Shown: positions 37,513 to 37,791 of the stretch, in pieces
Position numbering within the stretch: the stretch's first letter is position 1
How the letters are laid out: every line of letters starts with the position of its first letter
From: an uncultured Clostridia bacterium
GTDB taxonomy: Bacteria > Bacillota_I > Bacilli_A > RF39 > UBA660
Assembly: GCA_947168405.1 (NCBI GenBank)
Contig: CAMVLU010000001.1
Coordinates: 1-46,438, forward strand
Direction: 5' to 3'
DNA length: 46,438 bases
Translations under genes and position numbers: made by a program
Notes under the pieces: generated by a model
What the model saw: only the letters and a program-made list of their open reading frames with translations
Told to the model about the DNA's origin: nothing
Database searches by the model: none

Positions 37513-37630
37513 AGATGAAGGAAACTTCATAAAATAAAAAAGGATGTATCTAAATTTCAGAGGTTAGGTGCACTCCATGGTTAATGAAAATGCAGACTAA
37601 TACTCAAACTGAGTGTTAATCTGCATTGTT
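37513..37630 (+). ncRNA. Candidate antitoxin sRNA, unit 1
   Basis: Runs from the predicted start after the -10, through a 5' hairpin ATGAAG-GAAA-CTTCAT (37515-37530), to the 39-nt hairpin at 37589-37627. It converges on the toxin ORF. No ORF longer than 10 codons. Confidence 0.5.
37589..37627. terminator. Bidirectional hairpin shared by the convergent RNAs, unit 1
   Basis: AATGCAGACTAATACTC-AAAC-TGAGTGTTAATCTGCATT (about 17 bp, one mismatch, one wobble). The minus-strand version is followed by TTTCATT and the plus-strand version by GTTGCT. Confidence 0.65.
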
Positions 37631-37631
37631 G

Positions 37632-37715
37632 CTATCTAAGTTTAAATAGCATGATGATAATTATCATAAGTTGAAAAATTGCAATTGTAAAAAATGCTTT
37701 TTCTCTTCTAGTCAT
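37632..37715 (-). CDS. Candidate type I toxin, 27-aa hydrophobic peptide MTRREKAFFTIAIFQLMIIIIMLFKLR, unit 1 (not in ORF track)
   Basis: My translation of the rc of 37632-37715. AAGGAGG lies 8 nt upstream. The peptide has one 18-residue TM flanked by basic residues. An identical second copy exists. Confidence 0.6.
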   Translation of the reverse strand: MTRREKAFFTIAIFQLMIIIIMLFKLR

Positions 37716-37791
37716 AATATCATCCTCCTTTACAATTTATTATTTTTTATAAAGGAGTGCAAACTAACACTAATTAAATACATCCAAGATT

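Follow-up and report, generated by a model that had tools for sequence, protein, structure and literature searches.

We analysed a 46,438-nt stretch of DNA (the window) from an uncultured Clostridia bacterium (GenBank assembly GCA_947168405.1, contig CAMVLU010000001.1, forward strand). The 766-bp gap between a methyltransferase gene (end 37467) and pth (start 38234) contains two tandem minus-strand units of ~385 bp each. In each unit the 5' leader of the predicted mRNA is complementary to a block near its 3' end (3' block), and this 5'-3' closure is real, under selection and well supported. [quoted passage not shown]

Units 1 and 2 are 98% identical across the leader and the open reading frame (ORF), are more diverged in the 3' part, and encode one identical 27-amino-acid (aa) peptide, MTRREKAFFTIAIFQLMIIIIMLFKLR. 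The minus-strand RNA of unit 1 (37785-37531, 255 nt) was folded and gave -81.5 kcal/mol, against -40.7 ± 4.1 kcal/mol for dinucleotide shuffles (z = -10). Both the minimum free energy (MFE) structure and the centroid hold three elements, which are the 5'-3' helix, a hairpin between the anti-Shine-Dalgarno (anti-SD) CUCCUUUA and the Shine-Dalgarno (SD) UAAAGGAG, and a central hairpin. A sequence-only reading of the window had proposed that the leader is complementary to the 3' block ~210 nt downstream, and that the anti-SD pairs with the SD over 17 nt. All of the sequences it quoted were found at their minus-strand coordinates, including the unit-2 equivalents (38170-38140 and 37960-37924), and both pairings were recovered in the fold. 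The leader was also scanned against 15,464 segments of 46 nt from both strands of the window. Against a background with a mean of -9.1 kcal/mol and a standard deviation of 3.0, its best minus-strand partners in the 46 kb were the two 3' blocks, at -34.5 and -35.0 kcal/mol, and the next-best partner was the 5' arm of the central hairpin (-24.5 kcal/mol). The same blocks had been claimed for unit 2. They are present there, and the ensemble probability of pairing between the 5' end and the 3' end is 1.0, but the MFE structure of unit 2 instead pairs the leader with the hairpin 5' arm.

Relatives of the units were sought by three routes. Contigs encoding an identical Pth protein gave strain variants of the locus and revealed a second unit type, B, encoding MTNREKSQFIIIILLFILVFIILFK. 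Genome and metagenome contigs were scanned with a pattern consisting only of the anti-SD/SD hairpin and ATGAC, so that the leader and the 3' block were left free to vary. Diverged tandem neighbours were found with an nhmmer profile. The collection comes from other strains, three metagenome-assembled genomes (MAGs) and metagenome contigs, and its 33 distinct units fall into about eight clades (A, B, B2, C, D, E, F and G). Rumen and hindgut samples are the source of contigs such as L007-L016, L103, L106 and L108. The window's own units belong to clade A. The related contigs carry the label 'Bacilli bacterium' MAGs and come from animal guts, and the units occupy many different intergenic sites between core genes. 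The pattern scans were noisy (20 of the 25 genome-contig matches and most of the 104 metagenome matches were noise). Two pattern scans of the IMG/VR viral contigs did not find the family with these patterns and returned chance matches only. These were unrelated MT.REK proteins and divergent genes with palindromic SD pairs. Homologous ORFs of 24-28 aa exist in all clades, with frame and length kept and an extended SD upstream, and the encoded peptides have a charged N-terminus and a hydrophobic core.

The closure was kept in all 33 units, as would be expected if the blocks were conserved in homologous loci. The cognate duplex of leader and 3' block was worth -27 to -41 kcal/mol in every unit, compared with only -12 to -25 kcal/mol for non-cognate duplexes across the major clades, and the 5' end was predicted to pair with the 3' end in 28 of the 28 units tested (probability 0.65-1.0). 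The terminal blocks have changed together between clades, as GGAUGUAU/AUACAUCC (A), GGAUAUAU/AUAUAUCC (B), GGAUAUAC/GUAUAUCC (B2), GGAUACAU/AUGUAUCC (F) and GACAUGCC/GGUGUGUC (G), and the inner blocks vary as GCACUCC/GGAGUGC, GUGCUCC/GGAGCAC and GCAUUCC/GGAAUGC. Pair counts were made on an alignment (A2) that begins at the predicted +1 and replaced a first MAFFT alignment (A1), in which the longer leader of clade C was misaligned. In A2, the unit-1 structure (closure, anti-SD hairpin and central hairpin) was 86.6% paired, against 33-45% when the 3' partners were slid. None of 500 shuffles reached 86.6%, a control that overstates the significance because the sequences are phylogenetically related. 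The terminal helix was 98.8% paired, with compensatory changes on both sides at 5 of the 8 pairs, and the inner helix was 94.8% paired.

The mismatches in the closure are strand-specific. There were 73 G·U cells but only 11 A·C cells, and counting each column and clade once left 25 against 5. The pairing is therefore selected on the minus strand, which is that of the toxin mRNA. As judged from the alignment, this asymmetry is as expected for pairing inside a minus-strand RNA, and is not what mere similarity or a DNA-level feature would give. In most clades, pairing in the closure starts 6-7 nt past the -10 hexamer (often extended), and a few units have a spacer of 4-9 nt. These results bear on the idea that the inverted repeat is a DNA-level feature without RNA function, such as the terminal inverted repeats of an element like a miniature inverted-repeat transposable element (MITE), or a recombination site. 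The units do resemble such elements, being ~250 bp long with ~30-bp imperfect inverted repeats, multicopy, tandem, present at many chromosomal sites and exchanged as cassettes between strains. The conserved unit, however, runs beyond the repeats on both sides and takes in the toxin promoter, the U-run, a small hairpin (SL1) and a second promoter on the plus strand; the repeat starts at the promoter +1 and covaries alongside the ORF, SD and anti-SD elements; and no target-site duplication is visible at the repeat ends. We find a DNA-level origin scarcely credible, and a MITE-like origin was rejected. Tandem divergent copies, swapping of cassettes between strains and scattered intergenic sites are at the same time typical of type I toxin-antitoxin loci.

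The cassettes at the pth site vary among strains with an identical Pth protein. The window carries A+A, two contigs (L008 and L009) carry B+A, and two others (L007 and L014) carry B only, together with three extra small genes (DUF4177, 99 aa and 91 aa). One contig (L012) holds a chimera of window units 1 and 2, and the unit of L007 joins a B-type leader to an A-type 3' end, which leaves one A·C mismatch. Comparison of L007-L016 showed that contigs often break within units. Strongly diverged members stand in tandem in other genomes, as clades G+E and D+F (L103:3134-4615, L116:3450-4163, L097:6273-6986, L056, L075 and L131). Clade F has a different SD/anti-SD pair (GGAAAGGUGG / CCUUCCCUUUC) and a different peptide. 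In one host, a flanking gene (L139:11313-12959, minus strand) encodes an RNase J-like beta-CASP protein, as judged by sequence inspection only, which would fit a requirement for shielding the 5' ends of mRNAs.

To which strand the central hairpin serves as a terminator was judged from the U-tracts of 32 distinct units. After the hairpin, a mean of 1.6 U in 8 nt was found on the minus strand and 5.9 on the plus strand, and 8.1 U in 10 nt follow the 3' block on the minus strand. The central-hairpin U-tract lies on the plus strand, and therefore the hairpin is likely to be the terminator of a convergent small RNA (sRNA), while the toxin mRNA would read through it to the distal U-run. The sequence-only reading had offered read-through and termination at the hairpin side by side, and the tails favour the former. 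A conserved promoter (TTGaca-like, 17 nt, TGnTAnnAT) is present on the plus strand, with an extended -10 in nearly all clades. About 7 nt past it lies SL1, whose loop is usually GAAA on the plus strand and whose stem covaries (UGAAG/CUUCA, UCAAG/CUUGA, GUAAG/CUUAC, GCAAA/UUUGC and UGAGA/UCUCA). We predict a convergent sRNA of ~110-125 nt, consisting of SL1, an A-rich linker, a second stem-loop (SL2) and the terminator stem-loop (SL3), and this three-stem-loop fold was predicted in all clades. With the exception of SL1, the predicted sRNA is fully complementary to the 3' untranslated region (UTR) of the toxin mRNA. It is antisense to the 3' block, and therefore SL2 is a sense copy of the toxin leader, which it resembles in every clade.

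Two loci differ on the sRNA side. At L106:5942-6018 (plus strand) with the unit next to it, and likewise in L126, neither the 5' hairpin of the sRNA nor the usual extended -10 is present. The sRNA body of L106 is preceded on its own strand, at a distance of ~45 nt, by a gene for tRNA-Arg(tct), and the sRNA might there be made from the tRNA transcript.

The likeness between the leader and SL2 could also be explained if the toxin mRNA stopped at the central hairpin. In that case only the sRNA would contain the 3' block, as its complement, and the likeness to the leader would be functional, as a mimic or decoy, or would be left over from an inverted duplication that involved the promoter-leader region. 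Clade A is where this fits best, because the minus-strand tail of its hairpin is AUUUUCAU or AUUCGUAU (each strand has 4-5 U in 8). The other clades have minus-strand tails of the ACCC, ACAC or UCCA type (0-3 U in 8) next to a U-rich plus-strand tail, and the excess of G·U over A·C between leader and 3' block is likewise not accounted for. Termination at the hairpin as the general rule is highly improbable, and this model was rejected.

The SD was found to have two alternative partners within the mRNA. The leader hairpin between the first anti-SD (aSD1) and the SD was 99% paired among 32 distinct units. In the full-length ground state of most clades, the leader CUCC pairs with the GGAG that begins the 3' block (P = 0.6-0.99), while the partner of the SD becomes AUC-CUC-CUA, a segment of the ORF (aSD2). 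The SD:aSD2 helix was 84.4% paired across all clades. CUC accounts for 2 of the 801 Leu codons in the housekeeping ORFs of the window, and it is fixed at the AUC-CUC-CUA position in clades B, B2, C, D and G (e.g. L008:1189-1441 (-) and L033:7662-7915 (-)). The fixation of a rare codon at the aSD2 position is strong evidence for selection at the RNA level. The extension of the closure into CUCC also covaries with the first bases of the 3' block (CUCC/GGAG, UUCC/GGAA and UCCC/GGGA).

We then modelled how the SD responds to the state of the 3' end. The probability that the SD is unpaired was at most 0.31 in the full-length, 3'-truncated and sRNA-blocked models (0.11 for unit 1; 0.03-0.31 over 28 units). 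The mean modelled cost of opening the region from SD to AUG was 11.7 kcal/mol in the closed full-length RNA, 15.0 kcal/mol when the sRNA covered the 3' UTR, and 15.7 kcal/mol when the 3' UTR was removed. Of 21 units, 19 became costlier to open when blocked by the sRNA, and the average rise was 3.4 kcal/mol. The opening cost is lowest in the closed RNA, and therefore the closure would not be the translational lock in this folding model. If anything, it would slightly loosen the hold on the SD, and the sRNA would tighten it.

These costs speak to the logic of hok/Sok (plasmid R1) and AapA/IsoA (Helicobacter pylori) (PMC6733600, PMC8167048), to which the sequence-only reading had likened the locus. 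In such a scheme, the closure would be an inert locked form, and exonucleolytic trimming of the 3' block would refold the mRNA, expose the SD and permit both translation and antitoxin binding. The ingredients are indeed alike. In both known systems the two ends of the full-length mRNA interact over a long distance, and the SD is sequestered by successive elements, one in the 5' UTR and one in the ORF, as in the aapA3 model (PMC6733600); two mutually exclusive covarying folds exist here. The predicted direction, however, is opposite. Removal of the 3' block raises the modelled opening cost, so that a tighter lock is predicted, and the aSD1 hairpin, being local, does not need the 3' end in order to form. 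In hok and AapA, the 3' end is an anti-SD or fold-back element, its trimming activates, and the antisense RNA binds the 5' or ORF region (the AapA 3' end carries an anti-SD; PMC6733600). Here, the 3' block has no anti-SD and starts with an SD-like GGAG that rivals the SD for CUCC, and the predicted sRNA covers the 3' UTR, so that trimming would destroy the antitoxin target and not create it. Both known systems occur in Gram-negative bacteria. We consider this logic quite unlikely for the present units. The earlier interpretation was thus half right and is partly supported, as the closure and the SD lock were recovered and the hok-like activation was not.

Another alternative is that the closure only protects the RNA ends and, together with the U-run, terminates transcription, in the manner of the Fst RNA I 5' upstream helix. 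RNase J would be denied the 5' end and 3' exonucleases the 3' end, with no effect on translation, and the sRNA would act through RNase III only, like RatA on txpA. Several results are compatible with it. The helix spans the predicted +1 to the U-run in all clades, the two ends are paired with the high probabilities given above, the Fst helix has such a role (PMC7472228), one host contig carries the RNase J-like gene recognised by sequence inspection, and the SD is sequestered in every modelled state. End protection alone, however, needs no extension of the helix into the anti-SD CUCC, covarying with the start of the 3' block, nor a rare-codon second anti-SD that takes the SD precisely in the closed form. 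We regard pure end protection as rather unlikely.

A second fold of the mRNA was also conserved. RNAalifold on the full A2 alignment returned a competing fold without the closure, and therefore the closure was tested separately by explicit pair counts. In the competing fold, the leader inner block forms a helix with the central hairpin's 5' arm, the aSD1:SD hairpin is present, and the 3' block folds on itself as a local hairpin just before the U-run. The 3' block can form this local hairpin in most clades, and its mismatches are again biased to G·U (45 G·U against 14 A·C). The alignment clearly points to two mutually exclusive mRNA folds, both conserved with covariation. A co-transcriptional pathway is plausible, in which the local elements and the terminator form first and the closure follows.

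The leader inner block is complementary to the hairpin 5' arm in every clade, with covariation (A2 columns 30-41 with 182-193; window positions ~37756-37768 with 37611-37623), and the leader, the 3' arm of the central hairpin and SL2 are mutually similar. The pairing between the leader and the hairpin 5' arm could serve as a folding intermediate, as a second contact between sRNA and leader, or as an antiterminator within the sRNA.

A more elaborate and tentative possibility, which we hold to be doubtful, is a programmed four-element RNA switch whose closed 5'-3' form is the translation-competent state. The leader, the hairpin 3' arm and SL2 are similar to each other, and the 3' block is similar in its 5' half to the hairpin 5' arm. 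The 3'-block GGAG would be an anti-anti-SD that draws CUCC off the SD, so that only the ORF-internal anti-SD, which is weaker, still holds it. By mimicking the leader of the mRNA, the sRNA would compete with it, flipping the mRNA to the tightly locked fold and uncapping its 5' end, and the second covarying fold would be a co-transcriptional intermediate.

The bsrG/SR4-like reading that we prefer can be put as follows, where we infer the transcript ends, the toxicity of the peptide, the action of the sRNA and the involvement of RNases. The minus strand would give an mRNA of ~250 nt for a hydrophobic peptide of 24-28 aa. Its first ~30 nt from +1 would pair with the last ~35 nt before the U-run, so that the whole mRNA is closed by one long helix. 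The ribosome-binding site would never be free, being held either by the aSD1 leader hairpin or by the ORF-internal aSD2. The closure would shield both RNA ends from exonucleases and set up the terminator, giving an mRNA that is stable and poorly translated. The sRNA would beat the leader in the competition for the 3' block. The leader CUCC, released from the 3'-block GGAG, would then complete the aSD1 hairpin and tighten the translational block, and binding of the sRNA would also uncover the 5' end and present RNase III with a long duplex.

[quoted passage not shown] Helix P1 of bsrG joins nt 1-35 to nt 232-262, and a 4-bp helix contains the SD; SR4 attaches to the 3' part of bsrG, leaves nt 1-33 single-stranded, extends the SD helix from 4 to 8 bp, and promotes decay by RNase III (PMC3834814). 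The units share with this system a long helix that joins the first ~35 nt of the toxin mRNA to a 3' segment, and an SD within a short double-stranded region. The predicted sRNA resembles SR4 in having a non-complementary 5' stem-loop, the rest being complementary to the 3' part of the toxin mRNA including the 3' strand of P1. An antitoxin that is complementary to this strand therefore carries a copy of the leader, in bsrG/SR4 and here. Such a sense copy had been foreseen by the sequence-only reading and is carried by the predicted plus-strand sRNA; the view that it would be an unusual design does not hold in the light of bsrG/SR4 (PMC3834814). The antitoxin tightens the SD in bsrG/SR4, and our thermodynamic modelling predicts the same direction.

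Differences from bsrG/SR4 were also evident. BsrG has 38 aa and belongs to Pfam Hol_Tox, whereas the peptides here have 24-28 aa and no match. bsrG has a separate terminator (SL4) after P1, whereas the U-run here adjoins the closure, whose 3' strand can itself form the terminator hairpin. The ORF anti-SD and the SD-like GGAG of the 3' block would make an explicit three-way competition here. Merging of the terminator with the closure, an SD-like element in the 3' block and a rare-codon anti-SD in the ORF appear to be the distinctive wiring of this family.

Two further Gram-positive systems were compared. The par locus of Enterococcus faecalis pAD1 (Fst/RNA I-RNA II; Fst/Ldr family; PMC7472228) also has convergent promoters, a hairpin common to both RNAs, sequestration of the SD by an intramolecular 5' stem-loop, and a helix in which the extreme 5' end is hidden and which makes the toxin RNA more stable (PMC7472228). 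In par, the complementarity of RNA II to the RNA I 5' region stems from direct DNA repeats, DRa and DRb (PMC7472228). The repeats here are inverted, and therefore the sRNA resembles the leader and is not complementary to the toxin 5' region. The bidirectional terminator of par has no counterpart in most clades, where the common hairpin has its U-tract on the plus strand only. [quoted passage not shown] RatA is reported to act via RNase III cleavage only, with the SD helix unchanged, unlike our model, and TxpA is a Hol_Tox protein of 59 aa, unlike the 24-28-aa peptides here.

The peptides were searched against known toxins. Homology to TxpA/BsrG had been suggested by the 'MT.[YR]E' N-terminus, and a profile search gave no support for it. 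Pfam PF16935 (Hol_Tox) was not matched by seven family peptides at E up to 10, nor by the 27-aa peptide at E up to 1, and the BsrG positive control matched at E = 1.8e-8. The PXXXG motif and the charged C-terminal tail of Fst are absent from the family peptides, and no Fst match was found in Pfam or NCBIfam. The pattern scans also returned unrelated short hydrophobic ORFs behind an anti-SD/SD hairpin (MTDYEILSLVIMIIMLVFAALSFYKNDR and MTNYELFIALMAVASLVIACKRKNR) in four contigs of 61-65% GC from human gut (L065, L066, L079 and L145) and in a Clostridia MAG from horse (L037). Their N-termini recall TxpA/BsrG, without a Pfam or NCBIfam match, and they may be further unannotated candidates for type I toxins.

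Besides the overstated shuffle control, several points weigh against our preferred reading. In clade A, which includes the window's own units, CUCC mostly stays on the SD side (P = 0.84-0.89), and the partial minus-strand U-run after the clade-A hairpin means that some mRNA may stop there. Two clade-C units are without a good U-run after the 3' block. The competing fold is itself 93.8% paired, with compensatory changes present. The tightening by sRNA blocking was absent in 2 of the 21 units, and the proposed translational coupling is a matter of equilibrium folding energies, with a small effect of ~3 kcal/mol on a barrier of 12-15 kcal/mol. That the sRNA exists, where the transcripts end and that the peptide is toxic are all predicted. 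No family in Pfam or NCBIfam was matched by the peptides, and a whole-window Rfam scan reached the gathering score only for a T-box and a signal recognition particle (SRP) RNA, leaving the toxin locus without an Rfam family.

The features of both units are collected in Table 1.

Table 1. Coordinates of the predicted elements of units 1 and 2 in the window
Feature	Position	Strand	Description
Unit 1 toxin promoter	37792..37820	-	TTGTCT, 17 nt, TG-n-TACAAT; predicted +1 is G at 37785; from promoter scan
Unit 1 leader (L), 5' strand of the 5'-3' closure	37754..37785	-	GGAUGUAUUUAAUUAGUGUUAGUUUGCACUCC
Unit 1 anti-SD 1 (aSD1)	37750..37757	-	CUCCUUUA; CUCC common to the closure and contested by 3'-block GGAG
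Unit 1 Shine-Dalgarno	37724..37732	-	UAAAGGAGG; core UAAAGGAG at 37732-37725, 17 nt from aSD1
Unit 1 ORF, 27 aa	37632..37715	-	MTRREKAFFTIAIFQLMIIIIMLFKLR; charged N-terminus, hydrophobic core
Unit 1 ORF-internal anti-SD 2 counterpart (clade A)	37653..37664	-	Pairs in the MFE with the SD-start spacer and the AU of AUG
Unit 1 central hairpin	37589..37627	.	5' arm (H5) 37611-37627, 3' arm (H3) 37589-37605; predicted intrinsic terminator of the plus-strand sRNA
Unit 1 3' block (B3), 3' strand of the closure	37542..37576	-	GGAGUGCACCUAACCUCUGAAAUUUAGAUACAUCC, then UUUUUUAUUUU; begins with SD-like GGAG
Unit 1 U-run directly after the closure	37531..37541	-	Probable termination site of the toxin mRNA; A-rich sRNA linker on the plus strand
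Unit 1 sRNA promoter	37478..37506	+	TTGTCA, 17 nt, TG-n-TATTAT
Unit 1 predicted convergent sRNA, ~120 nt	37513..37636	+	SL1, A-rich linker, SL2, SL3 terminator; predicted ends
Unit 1 sRNA SL1	37515-37530	+	GAAA loop
Unit 2 toxin promoter	38177..38205	-	TTGTAT, 17 nt, TG-n-TACAAT; predicted +1 at 38170
Unit 2 leader (L)	38140..38170	-	
Unit 2 aSD1, loop and SD	38110..38143	-	aSD1 38136-38143, SD 38110-38118
Unit 2 ORF	38018..38101	-	Same 27-aa peptide
Unit 2 central hairpin	37975..38014	.	Predicted sRNA terminator
Unit 2 3' block and U-run	37913..37960	-	3' block 37924-37960, U-run 37913-37923
Unit 2 sRNA	37859..38022	+	Promoter 37859-37887, SL1 37896-37911, predicted body to terminator

The two clade-A ORFs of the window each hold a perfect 14-nt palindrome, ATGATAATTATCAT (37654-37667 and 38040-38053), and this segment pairs in the MFE structure with the SD-start spacer GAUGAUAUUAU.

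The window has a G+C content of 24.5% and contains dnaA, dnaN, gyrB and gyrA at 20.8-29.9 kb, as well as a PSP1/RicT-like gene, a methyltransferase gene, pth and mfd. This gene set therefore places it on the origin-proximal chromosome of a low-GC Firmicute. A search of region 37300-38400 against Rfam 15 at E up to 10 gave no relevant match, and the sub-threshold microRNA and small nucleolar RNA matches on the central hairpin are meaningless. The T-box leader (102.5 bits; 44473-44658, plus strand; upstream of ORF 44694-46235) and the small SRP RNA (65.3 bits; 30162-30259, plus strand) are ordinary.

Type I toxin-antitoxin families are few, phylogenetically narrow and hard to find by sequence (PMC12390103, PMC8594479). 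The present family occurs in very AT-rich uncultured gut Bacilli and stands outside all of the Pfam, NCBIfam and Rfam families searched. If the bsrG/SR4-like mechanism is true, tightening of the lock on the SD by an sRNA that binds the 3' strand of a helix between the mRNA ends would be a recurrent design. The family would offer a small, well-alignable model for the control of a distant ribosome-binding site by a 3'-binding antisense RNA, and the rare-codon anti-SD in its ORF a clean example of RNA-structure selection overriding codon usage.

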